From positions 1 through 18,907 of the forward strand of contig CAZKXU010000070.1 in assembly GCA_964556665.1 (NCBI GenBank): 18,907 bases of DNA, read 5' to 3'. Below are positions 1 through 18,582 of this stretch, piece after piece. Each line of letters starts with the position of its first letter. The stretch's first letter is position 1. Made by a program: the position numbers and the translations under genes. Source of the stretch: an uncultured Bdellovibrionales bacterium. Its GTDB lineage: Bacteria > Bdellovibrionota_C > UBA2361 > CAZKXU01. Under the pieces are notes generated by a model that saw nothing but the letters and a program-made list of their open reading frames with translations, was not told where the DNA came from and made no database searches.

Positions 1-43
1 TATTTGGAGGAGCACTAGTACACTGTAACATAAATCTTTCCCC

Positions 44-118
44 CTGGGACCGCGGGCATCTTGCCCGCAAACGAATTGGTTGCCACTACGTAGCGGGCTG
101 GACGACCGCGGTCCCAGT
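44..118. repeat. Copy 1 of a ~75-nt GC-rich palindromic repeat element (12-bp perfect terminal inverted repeats CTGGGACCGCGG / CCGCGGTCCCAG; internal hairpins)
   Basis: Bases 44-55 pair perfectly with 106-117. The inner hairpin GCGGGCA-tct-TGCCCGC spans 52-68. A second hairpin GCGG...CCGC spans 93-109. The element lies just downstream of the stop of the minus-strand binding-protein gene. It is about 75% identical to the copy at 10751-10825. Confidence 0.85.
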
Positions 119-147
119 GGATCTGAAAAATCTAATGATCGAGTGCG

Positions 148-1239: not shown

Positions 1240-3138
1240 TTATAACTCCACCTGCATTCCAATTTCAATTACCTGCTGAGGTGGAATATGAAAGAAGGTT
1301 GTAGCTCTTTCGGCATTGCGGGAGAGGAAGGCAAAAAGACGCTCCCGCCATATCGCCATACCCTGAAGTTCTGTTGCAATTAGGGTCTCTCTGCCTAAAA
1401 AATAGGTTGTCTCTCCAAAGCGGAGATTTATCCCCTGGTTAGTCAAAGACTTTAAGGCTTCCGGAATATTTGGAGTGTCTGAGAATCCGTAATGCACGAC
1501 CACACGGTAAAATCCCTTTCCTAGATCTTGCATTTCAACCCTCTCTTCACGTGGTACGCGAGGAATCTCCTCTGTTACAACCATTAACATAATCACCTGC
1601 TCGTGGAGTACTTTATTATGTTTAACATTATGCAAGAGTGCCGGTGGGGTGTTGTCAATGCTGCGATTCATGAATATTGCAGTACCTGGAACACGACTAA
1701 CACCTGTGTTGGCCATTTCAAGTACAAAATGTTCAAAAGGAATGCTCTTATGACGCAACCGCTCACCAAGTATCTCACGCCCGCGACACCAGGTAGTCAT
1801 CAGGGTGAATACTGCTAGTCCCATTGCTAGTGGAAACCATCCTCCATGGCCAATCTTAATAATGTTACTACCTAAATATATGGCATCAATTATGAAGAAA
1901 GGTAGTAAGATGAGCAGCGCCTTATATCTAGTCCAACGCCACCTAACCCTAGCGACAAAATAAAGTAAGATAAGAGTTATGATCATGGTGCAGGAAACAG
2001 CAAAGCCATACGCAGAAGCCAGGCTACTTGAGGAGCGGAATTCTAGCACAAGCCAAAGAGTTGCAATTAAGAGTGCATAATTAAGCTGCGGTATATAGAT
2101 CTGTCCAATAGCGTCTGAGGATGTGTGCACTATCTGTAAGCGCGGTAGGTATCCGAGCTGTACTGCCTGTCTAGTAAGAGAAAATGCTCCAGAGATTACA
2201 GCTTGTGAAGCAACTGCTGTTGCGGCTGTAGCCAGAGCCACCATAGGAATGAGCGCCCAATCAGGGACTAATAGGTAAAACGGATTGTATACGGCATTCT
2301 GATCCCGTAACAGCAAGGCACCTTGGCCGAAGTAGTTAAGGGTTAGGCATGGCAGAGCAACCATGAACCAGGCATGTCTGATGGGGATGCGGCCGAAGTG
2401 TCCCATATCAGCGTACATCGCCTCACCTCCGGTTACGACAAGAAAAACACAGCCGATTATCCACATCGATGACCAGCCATGGTTAATCAAAAACTGAATT
2501 GCGTAAGATGGGTTGATTGCCCAGAGCACGTCAGGAGAATGAGAGATGCTGTTAAGCCCAAGAAATCCGATCGATAAAAACCAGACTAAGATAACTGGTC
2601 CAAAAATAAAACCGATTTTTGTTGTACCGTGACGCTGAACTAGGAATAGGCAACTTAAAATTATAAGTGTCAGAGGAATAATATAGTCATCAAATGCGGT
2701 GGTAGCTACTTTAAGACCTTCAACAGCACTTAATACGGAGATAGCTGAGGTAAGCATGCTGTCCCCATACAGAAGTGAGGTTCCGAAAAGTCCCAATAAT
2801 AGGAGGGTGCTGCGCTTTACAACCGGATTACGGGTACGTGGATGAAGCAAGGCCGTTAGCGCCATTACGCCACCCTCTCCACGATTGTCAGCTTTAAGAA
2901 CAATTCCCTGGTATTCTATACAGATCGTCATTATCAGGGCCCAAAAAATAAGGCTCAATATTCCAAAAATATTCTCAGCACTGGGTGGAATGGCGTGTGA
3001 GCCGAAAAAACACTCTCTAATGGCATACAATGGACTAGTGCCGATATCGCCGAAAACGACACCGAGAGCAGTGAGTGTTAGTACAGCGTGAAACTTCTGT
3101 GTGCTATTGCCAGCGTGATGCTTGTTGTCGGTGCTCAT
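1240..3138 (-). CDS. kup: Potassium uptake transporter Kup (KUP/HAK/KT family)
   Basis: 632-aa polytopic membrane protein. The N-terminal ALGVVFGDIGTSPLYAIRE motif is characteristic of the Kup family. Length and hydrophobic profile are typical. Confidence 0.93.
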   Translation of the reverse strand: MSTDNKHHAGNSTQKFHAVLTLTALGVVFGDIGTSPLYAIRECFFGSHAIPPSAENIFGILSLIFWALIMTICIEYQGIVLKADNRGEGGVMALTALLHPRTRNPVVKRSTLLLLGLFGTSLLYGDSMLTSAISVLSAVEGLKVATTAFDDYIIPLTLIILSCLFLVQRHGTTKIGFIFGPVILVWFLSIGFLGLNSISHSPDVLWAINPSYAIQFLINHGWSSMWIIGCVFLVVTGGEAMYADMGHFGRIPIRHAWFMVALPCLTLNYFGQGALLLRDQNAVYNPFYLLVPDWALIPMVALATAATAVASQAVISGAFSLTRQAVQLGYLPRLQIVHTSSDAIGQIYIPQLNYALLIATLWLVLEFRSSSSLASAYGFAVSCTMIITLILLYFVARVRWRWTRYKALLILLPFFIIDAIYLGSNIIKIGHGGWFPLAMGLAVFTLMTTWCRGREILGERLRHKSIPFEHFVLEMANTGVSRVPGTAIFMNRSIDNTPPALLHNVKHNKVLHEQVIMLMVVTEEIPRVPREERVEMQDLGKGFYRVVVHYGFSDTPNIPEALKSLTNQGINLRFGETTYFLGRETLIATELQGMAIWRERLFAFLSRNAERATTFFHIPPQQVIEIGMQVEL

Positions 3139-3198
3139 ATTTTGCTAAGCAGTATGCCAGAAGCTTTGACCTCTGAATATACTGAGAAAACTCTATAT

Positions 3199-3312
3199 AG
3201 ACCTTATGACGCACCCCTCCAAGAAGTAAACTAATAATCGTAGGTTGCTTGTTGTTCCAATGAATAACAAGCCGAGCTACATTTACTAATGGAGGAATGC
3301 GTCATAAGGTCT
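3199..3312 (-). repeat. 114-bp nested inverted-repeat element / long RNA hairpin (22-bp arms AGACCTTATGACGCACCCCTCC ... GGAGGAATGCGTCATAAGGTCT) between small secreted gene stop and kup start
   Basis: Arms 3199-3220 and 3291-3312 are reverse complements at 20 of 22 positions. The two non-matching positions are C:A on the plus strand but G:U wobbles on the minus-strand transcript, giving a continuous 22-bp RNA stem in the transcribed orientation. An inner 7-bp hairpin GCTTGTT...AACAAGC lies at 3246-3271. The right arm overlaps the stop codon of the 3311 gene by 2 nt. Confidence 0.7.
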
Positions 3313-3703
3313 AGAGCACAGTAAGTTCCACTGTTCCTGATCCTGTATCAACTGTTAGTCCAGATAGACCAGGCTCAAGTGTGCAGGTGTGCGGAGCAGG
3401 GCAGATTAGGTTGCCATTGATCATAACAAAAAAATCTTTCCCTAAGAAAAAGATAGTAACTACGAAGCTTTCGCTGATTAATCCAGCATATGCGGGGCTT
3501 GCGTTAGTTACAGTCATATCGATGCTAGTTACACCACTTAAGCCTCCTCCTCCTGATCCAAGGCTGCGTCCACCGCTGCTTTGTGCAAAGACATTTGCTT
3601 GGGAGGATAAATAGTATGCGGTGAAAAAAAGCATTGAAAAGAGAGCCACTAATCTCTTTGTGATGATGCGAGGTCTTGAAGCTCTTGGAAGAAATGGAAG
3701 CAT
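3311..3703 (-). CDS. Hypothetical small secreted protein, Gly/Ser-rich N-terminal region after the signal peptide
   Basis: 130-aa ORF. It has a signal-peptide-like N-terminus (...LVALFSMLFFTAYYLSSQANVFA|QSSGG), followed by the low-complexity stretch GGRSLGSGGGGLSG and a C-terminal segment rich in predicted beta strands. I recognise no homology. It is divergent from the 3814 gene across an AT-rich spacer. Confidence 0.45.
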   Translation of the reverse strand: MLPFLPRASRPRIITKRLVALFSMLFFTAYYLSSQANVFAQSSGGRSLGSGGGGLSGVTSIDMTVTNASPAYAGLISESFVVTIFFLGKDFFVMINGNLICPAPHTCTLEPGLSGLTVDTGSGTVELTVL

Positions 3704-3813
3704 ACTGTGTTGAAGGGTAGCAGATAGAATAATTCAAGTCAAAGTTAAATTAAACAAATATATTGATTTAACTATATGTTGCTCTATATACTTGTCAGAG
3801 GAGGTGTTTGTTC
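3704..3813. promoter_or_regulatory. AT-rich divergent promoter region between the small secreted gene (-) and the 419-aa secreted gene (+); candidate sigma70-like TTGATT(3763-3768)-16nt-TATATA(3785-3790) and strong SD GAGGAGG(3798-3804)
   Basis: The intergenic spacer is AT-rich. Hexamers resembling -35/-10 lie with a 16-nt spacer. A perfect Shine-Dalgarno sits 9 nt upstream of the ATG at 3814. The promoter assignment is tentative because the predicted TSS would fall almost on the SD. Confidence 0.25.
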
Positions 3814-5073
3814 ATGGTCAAAGCTGATCACGCTAGAGGAGTAGCTGTTGCTGCAATTGCGGCTCTGTTTTCAGCTCCACATGCCGTGGCACTCCCACCA
3901 ATGCCATTGAAGATGCCTAGGCTAGAAGAGTCATTGGCAGTCGAGGGCGACAGCCAGGCAGAAAAACTCTCTATCTTTTCAGCTCTCCCGTTGGGTGTTC
4001 GGCAAGCCATAATGGCACGAGTGGAGGAGCGCCTCGATCAGCTAGATGATCCATTTTTTATAGCTATGACGAGATTTACAGGATCAGCTCAAGTAGGTGA
4101 TTTGCCGCTATATGCTCCACAGGTGGTGGTGCAGTATCTAGAAGGTGGCAATAAGAGAGATTTTGTCGGTACCTCCGCAAATGGCGAATCAGATCAAACT
4201 ACAGGCGCCCTTCCGTTTGCACTTGATGTTAAATATGTAGATCGCGGTCTTTATAGAACGGAACTTACTAGTCAGGACCTCTATCCCAATCTTCAATTTA
4301 GAGCTGCACTAAACGGATATCATTCTAATACAGCGTTGTGGCTTGCCACCTTGCTCAAAGAGCTAGATAACGGCCAAGACTTTTTTGCCGGAGATCAGCT
4401 AAAAAGGGAGAATGGATTTTATCTAGACTTTAGTAAGCTTCTCGATACTCGTCTTCCAGGAAAGAGTTGTACTATAGATATAGGGCTTCGTACCGCTGAT
4501 TATACTGATACGACCTGGCTAGATCTGGCATTTGAACCGTTCAAGGCAATAGTTGAGAAGCATTTTGGCGAGGATGGTAAGTACCCCACTGGAAAAATCT
4601 GGTCGGGACAACAGGATAAGCGTTTTATATTACTACAGGTATTTCTTTCATATAGAATTTTTAGGCAGGAACGAGAGGCCTCTGCTTTAGCTTGGGTATT
4701 AAACCCTGATGATTCTTTTCCCGCATCTTATAAAAGTTTTGAAAAAAGATTTGGACCTGGTACGCCTAAGGAGAAATTAAGCTGGAGAGAGGAGGCTATT
4801 GTTTGGTTAGGCGATATGCCTGATTTCTTTCGTCAGATAGATGAGACGAAGACTGCGCTTATTAGAGCGCCTGCAACTCCACCGAGTGGGGGAATAGTAG
4901 CTGGCTCACAACCAGATTTTTATCGAGCGGCTGCTGCCTCTCTTGCGCAACGAGGAGTTAAGGACCATCCAGACACATTGGATACGCTAGCTGTGTTGAA
5001 TGAACGATGGCGAATGCGTAATACTTTAGTAGCATTGATCGCCACTGAGGAGCTTGCTAATGCAACCAGATAA
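3814..5073 (+). CDS. Hypothetical secreted protein (419 aa), function unknown; translationally coupled to downstream sulfatase
   Basis: The ORF runs from a TTG at 3808. The ATG at 3814 is preferred because GAGGAGG ends 9 nt upstream. The N-terminus MVKADHARGVAVAAIAALFSAPHAVA|LPP looks like a Sec signal peptide. I recognise no catalytic motifs; it lacks the RGGS and C-terminal Cys motifs of the formylglycine-generating enzyme and has no radical-SAM CxxxCxxC. The stop at 5071-5073 lies 10 nt before the sulfatase ATG, within the sulfatase SD. Confidence 0.6.
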   Translation: MVKADHARGVAVAAIAALFSAPHAVALPPMPLKMPRLEESLAVEGDSQAEKLSIFSALPLGVRQAIMARVEERLDQLDDPFFIAMTRFTGSAQVGDLPLYAPQVVVQYLEGGNKRDFVGTSANGESDQTTGALPFALDVKYVDRGLYRTELTSQDLYPNLQFRAALNGYHSNTALWLATLLKELDNGQDFFAGDQLKRENGFYLDFSKLLDTRLPGKSCTIDIGLRTADYTDTTWLDLAFEPFKAIVEKHFGEDGKYPTGKIWSGQQDKRFILLQVFLSYRIFRQEREASALAWVLNPDDSFPASYKSFEKRFGPGTPKEKLSWREEAIVWLGDMPDFFRQIDETKTALIRAPATPPSGGIVAGSQPDFYRAAAASLAQRGVKDHPDTLDTLAVLNERWRMRNTLVALIATEELANATR

Positions 5074-10750: not shown

Positions 10751-10825
10751 CTGGGAACGCGGGCTTCCAGTCCGCAAACGAAATTGCAGGCACTAAGTAG
10801 CGAGCTAGAAGCTCGCGGTCCCAGT
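10751..10825. repeat. Copy 2 of the ~75-nt palindromic repeat element
   Basis: It has the same length (75 nt) and the same termini CTGGGAaCGCGG...CGCGGTCCCAG, with one A:G mismatch in the outer stem. Inner hairpins are GCGGGCt-tcc-aGtCCGC and GCGAGC-tagaa-GCTCGC. It lies in the 134-bp spacer between the SPFH gene and queA. Confidence 0.85.
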
Positions 10826-17380: not shown

Positions 17381-17433
17381 CTGGGACCGCGGGCTTCCAG
17401 CCCGCTTGATCGAGGAATTTGCCAAGACATAGT
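17381..17433. repeat. Copy 3 (truncated) of the palindromic repeat element: 5' arm + hairpin A + central segment only
   Basis: CTGGGACCGCGGGCTTCCAGCCCGC (17381-17405) matches the 5' half of copies 1 and 2. The following GAATTTGCCA matches the central GAATTGGTTGCCA / GAAATTGCAGGCA. The 3' terminal arm is absent. It lies 64 bp downstream of the ATPase gene stop. Confidence 0.7.
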
Positions 17434-17436
17434 TGA

Positions 17437-17478
17437 CCCCAATAAATTGTCCCCAATAAATTGTCCCCAATAAATTGT
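17437..17478. repeat. Tandem direct repeat, 3 x 14 bp (CCCCAATAAATTGT)
   Basis: Three perfect head-to-tail copies lie at 17437-17450, 17451-17464 and 17465-17478, immediately after the truncated palindromic element and before a long AT-rich spacer. Confidence 0.9.
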
Positions 17479-17607
17479 CTCACTGACATTGCGAACCTCC
17501 TACTAAAAATTGTAGATTTGAAATCAAATAAGTTGGTGACTAAAAACTCAATTTATATAGAATCTTAGCGCCAAGCATTAAGCCAGTTAGCGTGCTATTA
17601 TTGCCTT

Positions 17608-17895: not shown

Positions 17896-18582
17896 ATGGC
17901 GAAATTTACAGCAAGATATGAGATCGTGGCGACAAAGAGTATAGTTGCCTCAGAACTGGCTAGAATGCAAAAGGCATGCTTTGATGAAGAAATACTACAA
18001 TGCTATAAGGACAACAATGAAGAGCAATTATATTGGGAGCAGTTTGACTGTCTCAAGAACAAGGTAAAGGGATACCGGACTTTCAATAAGATAATTAGTT
18101 TGGGGCATTCCGATGTAAAAAGTTTTGCAAAAAAGCTAACGGAAAAGCTGACGCAGTTATTCAATACAATTGGTGCCACTCACTTAATTATAATCTCTGA
18201 TTTAAAAAATGATTTTTTTGGAAATAGAGATAATAAGTTCAAACCATTAAAACAGGCGTATAATAAACTTGAAAAAATTGTTGGTGACAAAACATTTAAA
18301 GAGGCCTTTTCTGTCGATATAGATGATTTAAAAGACTTCATAGAAATTATCTTTTGGATAACGCGTTGCGATCCAAGCGTGCCTGGTCTTTACCTATTTG
18401 ACGATGGAGAGCAAATTCAAATTAGATTGTGCAAATATGGAAACATACATTTGATACAATATAAAAAAGTTGTTTTGACAGAGGGCAAATTGAAAGACTT
18501 GGGTTGGACAATTCTTAAAAAAAAGTGTTTTGACAACTTTACTAGTACCGGTAGGATTGAAGGAAGGCAGCTAAAAGTATAA
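17896..18582 (+). CDS. Hypothetical protein (228 aa), orphan, AT-rich, Lys-rich, no recognisable motifs
   Basis: The long ORF sits in an AT-rich region. No convincing SD is present (CCCTCT upstream). No signal peptide or TM segment is apparent. Codon composition is unlike the neighbouring sec operon. Confidence 0.5.
   Translation: MAKFTARYEIVATKSIVASELARMQKACFDEEILQCYKDNNEEQLYWEQFDCLKNKVKGYRTFNKIISLGHSDVKSFAKKLTEKLTQLFNTIGATHLIIISDLKNDFFGNRDNKFKPLKQAYNKLEKIVGDKTFKEAFSVDIDDLKDFIEIIFWITRCDPSVPGLYLFDDGEQIQIRLCKYGNIHLIQYKKVVLTEGKLKDLGWTILKKKCFDNFTSTGRIEGRQLKV

Follow-up and report, generated by a model that had tools for sequence, protein, structure and literature searches.

A CTGGGA-tagged, REP-like hairpin repeat carried by bacteria of at least two phyla

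Repeated hairpins in the contig

The stretch of DNA analysed here (hereafter the window) is a complete MAG contig of 18,907 bp with a GC content of about 44%. Encoded on it are a periplasmic binding protein, Kup, a sulfatase, pyruvate carboxylase and a Band 7 protein, together with QueA, Tgt, YajC, SecD, SecF and an AAA_14/DUF4143 ATPase. The Tgt protein is at most 64–66% identical to any other protein in a large collection, and its named neighbours come from ‘Deltaproteobacteria’ and ‘Oligoflexia’ MAGs. Three intergenic sites, located 30, 31 and 63 nt past stop codons, stand out as GC-rich islands (59–66% GC) within spacers of 35–40% GC. A preliminary description of the window had assigned these sites to a repeat family that is intergenic, lies at gene 3′ ends in AT-rich spacers and is not a tRNA; the positions agree with this account, and a tRNA/tmRNA scan of the window was empty.

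The existence of a repeat family is well supported: segments 44–118 and 10751–10825 align without gaps at 59 of 75 positions (79% identity), and the arm pattern CTGGGAMCGCGRKCNTCNNGYYCGC matches the window five times, against an expectation of 0.00 in 200 dinucleotide-preserving shuffles. The repeating unit, however, is a 25-nt arm and not the 75-mer originally proposed; two alignable copies are indeed present, but the element proper measures 74 nt (44–117 in copy 1). In each arm, a 7-bp stem (GCGGGCN/N′GCCCGC) capped by a 3-nt TCY loop comes after an unpaired 8-nt tag (CTGGGAMC), and a full element comprises two inverted arms, tags outward, that flank a 24-nt centre. Two full elements and one solo arm are found in the window, as follows.

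44–68, + strand: left arm of copy 1, tag CTGGGACC and stem GCGGGCA / loop TCT / TGCCCGC; exact pattern match
69–92, no strand assigned: 24-nt centre of copy 1, AAACGAATTGGTTGCCACTACGTA; identical to the centre of copy 2 at 18 of 24 positions
93–117, − strand: right arm of copy 1, inverted and degenerate, CTGGGACC GCGGTCG TCC AGCCCGC; exact pattern match
10751–10775, + strand: left arm of copy 2, tag CTGGGAAC and GCGGGCT / TCC / AGTCCGC; pattern match, with a T:A closing pair and one G:T wobble
10776–10799, no strand assigned: 24-nt centre of copy 2, from comparison with the centre of copy 1
10800–10824, − strand: right arm of copy 2, tag CTGGGACC and GCGAGCT / TCT / AGCTCGC; pattern match, with a double change from G:C to A:T at stem pair 4
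17381–17405, + strand: solo arm (REP singlet), tag CTGGGACC and GCGGGCT / TCC / AGCCCGC; pattern match with a fold of its own

Four of the five window arms form their own DNA hairpin (−5.1 to −8.8 kcal/mol); the left arm of copy 1, for instance, folds alone into tag, 7-bp stem and triloop at −8.8 kcal/mol (z −4.0). The exception is the right arm of copy 1, which retains only 5 of 7 pairs, such that the separate hairpin once assigned to it no longer forms; in the long hairpin it pairs with the left arm. A fold of three hairpins had been suggested for the complete element, but by minimum free energy both full copies adopt a single long hairpin (RNA −49.7/−54.8 and −36/−38.4 kcal/mol, z −4 to −8). 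Alternative folds are possible, as had been pointed out, although they are a trivial outcome of two palindromic arms standing in inverted orientation. The 12-nt terminal inverted repeats are perfect in copy 1, as described, while copy 2 carries mismatches. Every compensatory change named at the outset was confirmed: the left-arm closing pair turns from A:T to T:A, a G:C becomes G:T in copy 2, and the right arm carries the double change of G:C (96:106) to A:T (10803:10813).

The third site had been regarded as a truncated copy spanning 17381–17433. A partial copy does lie there, but it is just one 25-nt arm, and sequence comparison revealed no homology to the full copies beyond position 17405. 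Three tandem 14-nt units (CCCCAATAAATTGT, 17433–17479) come after the solo arm; past these the DNA has 33% GC up to the contig end (18907) and contains an orphan 228-aa ORF (17896–18582) with no Pfam or NCBIfam match. The segment 17406–18907 may be of foreign origin and have taken the place of a doublet's second half. The window also contains an unrelated long palindrome at 3198–3313, between kup (1240–3138, − strand) and an ORF at 3311–3703 (− strand). The 24-nt arms of this palindrome (TAGACCTTATGACGCACCCCTCCA / TGGAGGAATGCGTCATAAGGTCTA) show 92% complementarity, its folding energy on each of the two strands is −60 to −63 kcal/mol (z about −10 to −11), and a partial match (CTTATGACGCA...) occurs at 1747–1772.

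Distribution and architecture of the arm

When species-representative genomes were scanned for the arm pattern, at least 117 blocks of 8 kb were recovered, where about two chance matches are expected from the information content of the pattern. According to record labels and taxonomy, most of the listed blocks belong to Acidobacteriota (Pyrinomonadaceae, Blastocatellia, Thermoanaerobaculia including Ca. Multivorans, and Chloracidobacterium) and Planctomycetota (Gemmata, the Gemmataceae isolate CJuql4, Singulisphaera sp. GP187 and Frigoriglobus), and others are labelled Verrucomicrobiota, Chloroflexota, Alpha-, Beta- and Gammaproteobacteria, ‘Deltaproteobacteria bacterium TL4’ and more. The GC content of arm-carrying DNA ranges from 43% to 73%. 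The copies appear to be numerous and dispersed: among the matches listed, several genomes give 4–5 separate 8-kb blocks each, and sampling of additional sites in arm-bearing blocks gave a density near one site per 49 kb, which corresponds to some 100 sites in a 5-Mb genome. The three sites in the 18.9 kb of the window are denser than this.

Acidobacteriota and Planctomycetota are secure as carriers because both isolates and many independent MAG sets bear arms, and the low-GC lineage of the window is separate again from these two phyla. Some of the other phylum labels should be treated with caution. The record OZ242023.1 (L112), titled ‘Gammaproteobacteria bacterium’, is syntenic with OZ253534.1 (L001) of Ca. 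Multivorans in five blocks at 70–78% nucleotide identity; Ca. Multivorans is placed in Acidobacteriota in the NCBI taxonomy, and some labels of arm-bearing MAGs are therefore doubtful.

Arms also occur on mobile replicons. Plasmid pSINAC01 of Singulisphaera acidiphila carries the arm, with no transposase nearby, and was the only carrier found in the plasmid and cultured-phage collections; none of 50,697 cultured phage records contained the arm. Eight IMG/VR stretches contain it, including a Mu-like phage. In the 38.7-kb contig of this phage, three solo arms share one orientation (L123 4942–4966; L126 2181–2205 and 4337–4361), and one of them directly follows a stop codon. Same-orientation arm pairs in IMG/VR were considered as possible IS200/IS605-like elements and rejected; the DNA between the arms consists of phage genes, including a Mu-like transposase.

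Across 194 arms, conservation extends from 1–2 bases before the C of CTGGGA to one base past the stem, and the flanks are unconserved. The first base of the tag is C in 95% of these arms, T in 3% and G in 1%, and CTGG sits 4 nt from the stem. Of 263 tag occurrences, 172 are followed by a stem in which no fewer than 6 of 7 pairs form. When two arms lie no more than 400 nt apart, they are mostly inverted with tags outward (66 of 91 pairs), with 22 pairs in direct orientation and 3 with tags inward; the distance between arms varies from 1 to 163 nt. Same-orientation tandem arrays and solo arms are common across loci, and tandem clusters are found as well (for example, L084 6072–6456 and L097 3952–4323).

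The modules that surround the conserved arm differ from lineage to lineage. In Blastocatellia, Pyrinomonadaceae and Chloracidobacterium, TCAAGTGATTTG lies outside the arm and a second small hairpin inside, and in some Pyrinomonadaceae the tag is repeated 15 nt further out. Between genomes, conservation is limited to the 25-nt arm and does not extend to the 75-mer; the 24-nt centre of the window elements was not found in the doublets of other genomes, save for a partial GCCCGCAAACGA match at locus L040. Within a genome, the two doublets of the window share their centre (18/24), and centres are likewise conserved in Blastocatellia doublets. The doublet is therefore a unit copied within a genome, and between genomes only the arm is kept. 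Most doublets are heterodimers (49 of 64), and the pairing is recurrent: an ATCTT-type arm is usually combined with a GTCCC-type arm (in the window, L057, L066 and L094), a likeness to the Y/Z pairs of BIMEs.

Stem covariation, mobility and the search for a partner enzyme

Pairing of the stem is under selection. Among 84 distinct arms we counted 33 double-change cells, compared with 4.7 ± 1.9 in shuffled data (0 of 500 shuffles reached 33), and double changes were seen in 5 of the 7 stem pairs. Shifting the partner column lowered pairing from 91.5% to 34–50%. The closing pair, which was left free in the search pattern, is G:C in 56 of the distinct arms, A:U in 12, U:A in 6, C:G in 5 and unpaired in 5 (133/24/7/5/3 by occurrence, in the same order). 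The compensatory changes first seen in the window thus belong to a general pattern, and the preliminary argument that pairing maintained by double changes reflects selection holds across the larger set.

Related genomes differ in the presence of the repeat. The search for empty sites, one of the checks put forward in the preliminary description, produced one filled site and its empty counterpart: the doublet of L064 (3263–3341) lies exactly where L086 (at about 3290) has the overlapping stop/start ATGA of orthologous genes. The reading frame is open right through the L064 doublet, and an Arg-rich N-terminal extension may therefore be added to the downstream gene. Ca. Multivorans species of 88–93% identity share arms at orthologous positions. 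In one comparison between such species (L089 1480–3845 and L065 435–1936, flanks 92–93% identical), orthologous arms bracket different toxin-antitoxin cassettes, with PIN and HEPN/nucleotidyltransferase genes in one, and a VapB-like gene and another gene in the other.

The genes beside the arms are unrelated housekeeping genes. An all-vs-all BLASTP of 3,860 ORFs from the 117 listed loci returned only housekeeping families as recurrent neighbours, each at no more than seven loci. Arm pairs 350–4,000 nt apart were examined as candidate autonomous elements and discarded; the genes between them are ordinary ones (a TRAP-type periplasmic solute-binding protein, PCMT and toxin-antitoxin cassettes). 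We also observed that long spurious ORFs read through the arms in the GC-rich loci L109, L114 and L089, with the recurrent arm-derived peptides GCGQDARVPR, SWERGHPARI, PGNAGILPASG and AGRMPAFPG. Such ORFs are likely a source of junk ‘hypothetical proteins’ in databases.

We searched for Y1/RAYT genes with phmmer, an 81-sequence profile HMM and HUH...Y motif regular expressions, using E. coli RayT and the RAYT of locus L069 as queries. No such gene was found beside any CTGGGA arm in approximately 0.9 Mb of arm-bearing DNA from the listed loci; at about 100 sites per genome only some 1–2 REPtrons, RAYT genes with the same REPs on their flanks, are expected in this amount of DNA, and so failing to find one is not significant. 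The only RAYT in the sample, in Pyrinomonadaceae (L069 3537–4187), is flanked by a classic GTAG REP, TTGTAGGGGCGGCAC...GTGGCCGCCCC (region 3307–4297; REP GTAGGGGCGGCACTCCGTGGCCGCCCC). A metagenome scan with the RAYT alignment, a narrow query, recovered 80 close relatives of this protein from soil (L128–L207), of which 69 keep the GTAG REP and none has the CTGGGA arm. Since the L069 RAYT and most of its relatives keep their own GTAG REP, two REP families coexist in these genomes; the result shows RAYT–REP specificity without naming the enzyme of the CTGGGA arm. No TIRYT gene was found near CTGGGA arms, and the repeat associated with class 3 TnpA(Y1) was essentially absent from arm-bearing loci, with one diverged pair (4 mismatches) in L016 only.

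Comparison with known repeats and interpretation

Judged by sequence, the closest published counterpart of the arm is the REP of Pseudomonas putida KT2440, TGTGGGAGCGGGCgTGCCCGCGAA (TGTGGGA-GCGGGC-gT-GCCCGC; PMC2817692). This REP and the RAYT-associated REP of D. propionicus listed in Table S1 of PMC6006769 (GTAGGAGCGGGCCATGCCCGCGA) share a TGGGA/GGA tag core and the same GCGGGC/GCCCGC stem with the CTGGGA arm. The REPs of P. putida and P. fluorescens, which belong to the GTAG-1 family (RAYT subclass 2.5, Bertels group 3), further resemble it in having a 5′ unpaired tag containing TGGGA, a short loop, an extragenic location and complementary stem changes, and in occurring as singlets, clusters and tag-outward inverted doublets (REPINs). 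There are differences, however. The tag of the P. putida REPs is GT[AG]G whereas that of the arm is CTGG; two additional unpaired bases (MC) separate tag and stem in the arm; and the arm has a seventh pair conserved only as a pair, together with a TCY triloop. The P. putida REPs are also restricted to one genus, whereas the CTGGGA arm is present in Acidobacteriota, Planctomycetota and other phyla, with no RAYT found beside it. With a C at the first tag position in 95% of arms, and CTGG 4 nt away from the stem, the arm does not fit the GTAG-tagged superfamily and canonical RAYT REPs, whose GT[AG]G tetranucleotide lies at the hairpin foot or 1–2 nt from it.

The anatomy otherwise corresponds to what is known of REPs. 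These are in general imperfect palindromes of 20–40 bp that form a stem-loop, and the 25-nt arm has a 7-bp stem and a 3-nt loop. The survey of Di Nocera et al. (PMC3733652) describes an unpaired tag at one end, tag-outward dimers with spacers of 20–100 bp, clusters and complementary changes, and the CTGGGA element matches all of these surveyed features. The doublets likewise resemble the REPINs of Bertels & Rainey (2011), in which two inverted REPs and a spacer form a long hairpin that is kept as a unit within a genome: 66 pairs face tag-outward, the long-hairpin folds have z-scores of −4 to −8, and the centres are conserved within a genome. The single-copy RAYT flanking that defines REPIN–RAYT systems is not observed beside CTGGGA arms, and while bioRxiv 10.1101/2022.05.22.493013 characterises those systems as mostly vertically inherited within lineages, the arm sequence is common to several phyla.

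Other repeat families offer partial parallels. The class 3 TnpA(Y1)-associated repeat is given by Quentin et al. (2018) as CnGA-GCCGCGACCGTnAGGGAGCGG and is reported there as conserved between Legionella, Planctomyces and Solibacter; as described, it too is a hairpin repeat found across Planctomycetes, Acidobacteria and Proteobacteria and reaching high copy number in some genomes, which provides a precedent for a cross-phylum REP-like family, although its sequence is another and its structure is weaker and bulged. CGTC-tagged REPs, a superfamily without a dedicated transposase in the account of PMC3733652, and the TIRYT/TIRtron repeats of Di Nocera et al. (2013) are described as tagged stem-loops in tag-outward dimers, similar to the repeats considered here. 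The arm lacks the terminal CGTC tag, the 8–9 bp stems with A/T first pairs and the CCA tail given for the CGTC REPs, and the G-rich motif of the TIRYT inverted repeats, GGGGWSAS, is only loosely like TGGGACCG, matching at 6 of 8 positions. A literature search by sequence and topic yielded no description of the CTGGGA repeat, and it is absent from the text and supplements of PMC3733652 and PMC6006769, the parts to which the comparison extended (their consensus-bearing figures fall outside it). Within that scope, the family is previously undescribed in the REP surveys compared. The repeat had first been called unrecognised, and this remains appropriate with regard to Rfam and to the text and supplements of the surveys, although the close likeness to the Pseudomonas REPs had been missed.

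We therefore consider it most probable (about 0.72) that the CTGGGA repeats are a REP-type DNA element and that the inverted arm pairs are REPIN-like doublets. Of the identities initially entertained, a REP-like element agrees with the tagged stem-loop, with the occurrence of singlets, inverted doublets and clusters in multiple copies, with the lack of target-site duplications and with the covarying stem. Several observations count against an explanation by REP and RAYT, namely that no Y1/RAYT gene was found adjoining the arms in about 0.9 Mb, that the one RAYT encountered and its 80 relatives go with a different REP and with no CTGGGA arm, that the tag is not GT[AG]G, and that near-identical arms occur across phyla and at 43–73% GC.

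One may postulate that the element instead acts at the level of RNA, as a structured small RNA or as a cis-acting 3′-UTR hairpin (a stabiliser or terminator), and is not mobile DNA. We regard this as unlikely, though it would account for several features: all three window copies lie 30–63 nt past stop codons, the folds are very stable, G:U wobbles are present in the stems, and 48 of 77 solo arms are found within 200 nt downstream of a gene, a count that rests on crude ORF-based gene calls that are unreliable in GC-rich DNA. An Rfam search, also put forward in the preliminary description, returned no family at the gathering threshold in the window, only a sub-threshold match to a microRNA hairpin in E-value mode, and no match for the arms of 14 other loci. 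The 15 terminator-like calls include none of the three window sites, and the stems are not directly followed by a T-run. Solo arms have no preferred orientation, with 23 running in the direction of the upstream gene and 20 against it, and stem mismatches of the A:C type (6) come close in number to G:T (10), which gives preference to neither strand. These results favour a DNA-level recognition element, because there is no orientation bias, A:C is about as frequent as G:T, the conserved tag is unpaired and the spacers vary freely. The suggestion of a structured small RNA thus finds no support in Rfam, in the conservation between genomes, which is confined to the 25-nt arm, or in the orientation of solo arms. 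Known REPs act on upstream mRNA as transcribed hairpins, serving as 3′ mRNA stabilisers or read-through barriers, and by analogy a generic effect of the transcribed CTGGGA hairpin on upstream mRNA is likely; this effect is compatible with a REP-type element, yet it cannot explain the conserved tag.

Two further scenarios operate at the DNA level. The arms could be non-mobile sites bound by a conserved DNA-binding or nucleoid protein of the host, with gene conversion or recombination as the means of spread, in the manner of orphan CGTC REPs. The failure to find a cognate transposase and the extreme conservation of tag and stem across distant genomes are consistent with such a scenario, and the transposase-less REP superfamilies described in PMC3733652 provide a precedent; nevertheless we find it quite improbable, as no candidate protein is at hand, presence or absence varies between related genomes, arms are also found in phage contigs, and the lineage-specific composite doublets look like replicating units. 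Alternatively, the doublet could be a classical MITE, that is, a deletion derivative of a DDE-transposase IS with the arms as terminal inverted repeats. Small, intergenic, multi-copy elements with terminal inverted repeats of about 25 nt would suit this description, and a MITE had been among the initial suggestions. When the flanks were examined for target-site duplications, as had also been proposed, none of 64 doublets had a direct repeat of at least 3 nt, and 2-nt repeats were observed in 8 cases where 6.4 are expected. This argues strongly against a DDE-type MITE and fits single-strand transposition of the HUH/Y1 type. Many arms stand alone or in same-orientation tandem arrays, the single arm already behaves as a covarying hairpin, and no recurrent transposase family was found near the arms of the listed loci; we accordingly consider a classical MITE very unlikely.

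If the CTGGGA repeats are a REP-type element, a mechanism can be proposed. In single-stranded DNA or RNA, a doublet can form a single long hairpin. The arms, with their tag and stem, would be recognised as single-stranded DNA hairpins by a trans-acting HUH/Y1 enzyme of the RAYT/TnpA(REP) kind, which would cut and rejoin at the tag, and doublets would spread as non-autonomous units without target duplication. As no RAYT or Y1 gene was found beside the copies, mobilisation by a Y1 HUH enzyme is something we infer from the anatomy. Where they have inserted downstream of genes, the transcribed hairpins probably stabilise mRNA 3′ ends or block read-through in a generic way, in line with the behaviour of known REPs.

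REPs and REPINs are usually viewed as lineage-specific and vertically inherited with their own RAYT, and a near-invariant 25-nt core shared across phyla does not fit this view. That the core is retained across phyla and base compositions points to horizontal spread or to a strongly conserved recognition partner. More tentatively, and with considerable doubt, the CTGGGA hairpin may be a third superfamily of tagged REPs whose core is near-invariant in Acidobacteriota, Planctomycetota, the deep-branching lineage of the window and probably more phyla. If so, the trans-acting partner would be moving horizontally, as the arms in phage contigs might suggest, or be unusually conserved; it might be a Y1/HUH subclass encoded away from the repeats, or another single-stranded-DNA enzyme. 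Because the arms seed many spurious ORFs in GC-rich genomes, recognising the family would improve annotation, and identifying the cognate enzyme would test whether tag-plus-hairpin recognition by Y1 nucleases reaches beyond GT[AG]G.
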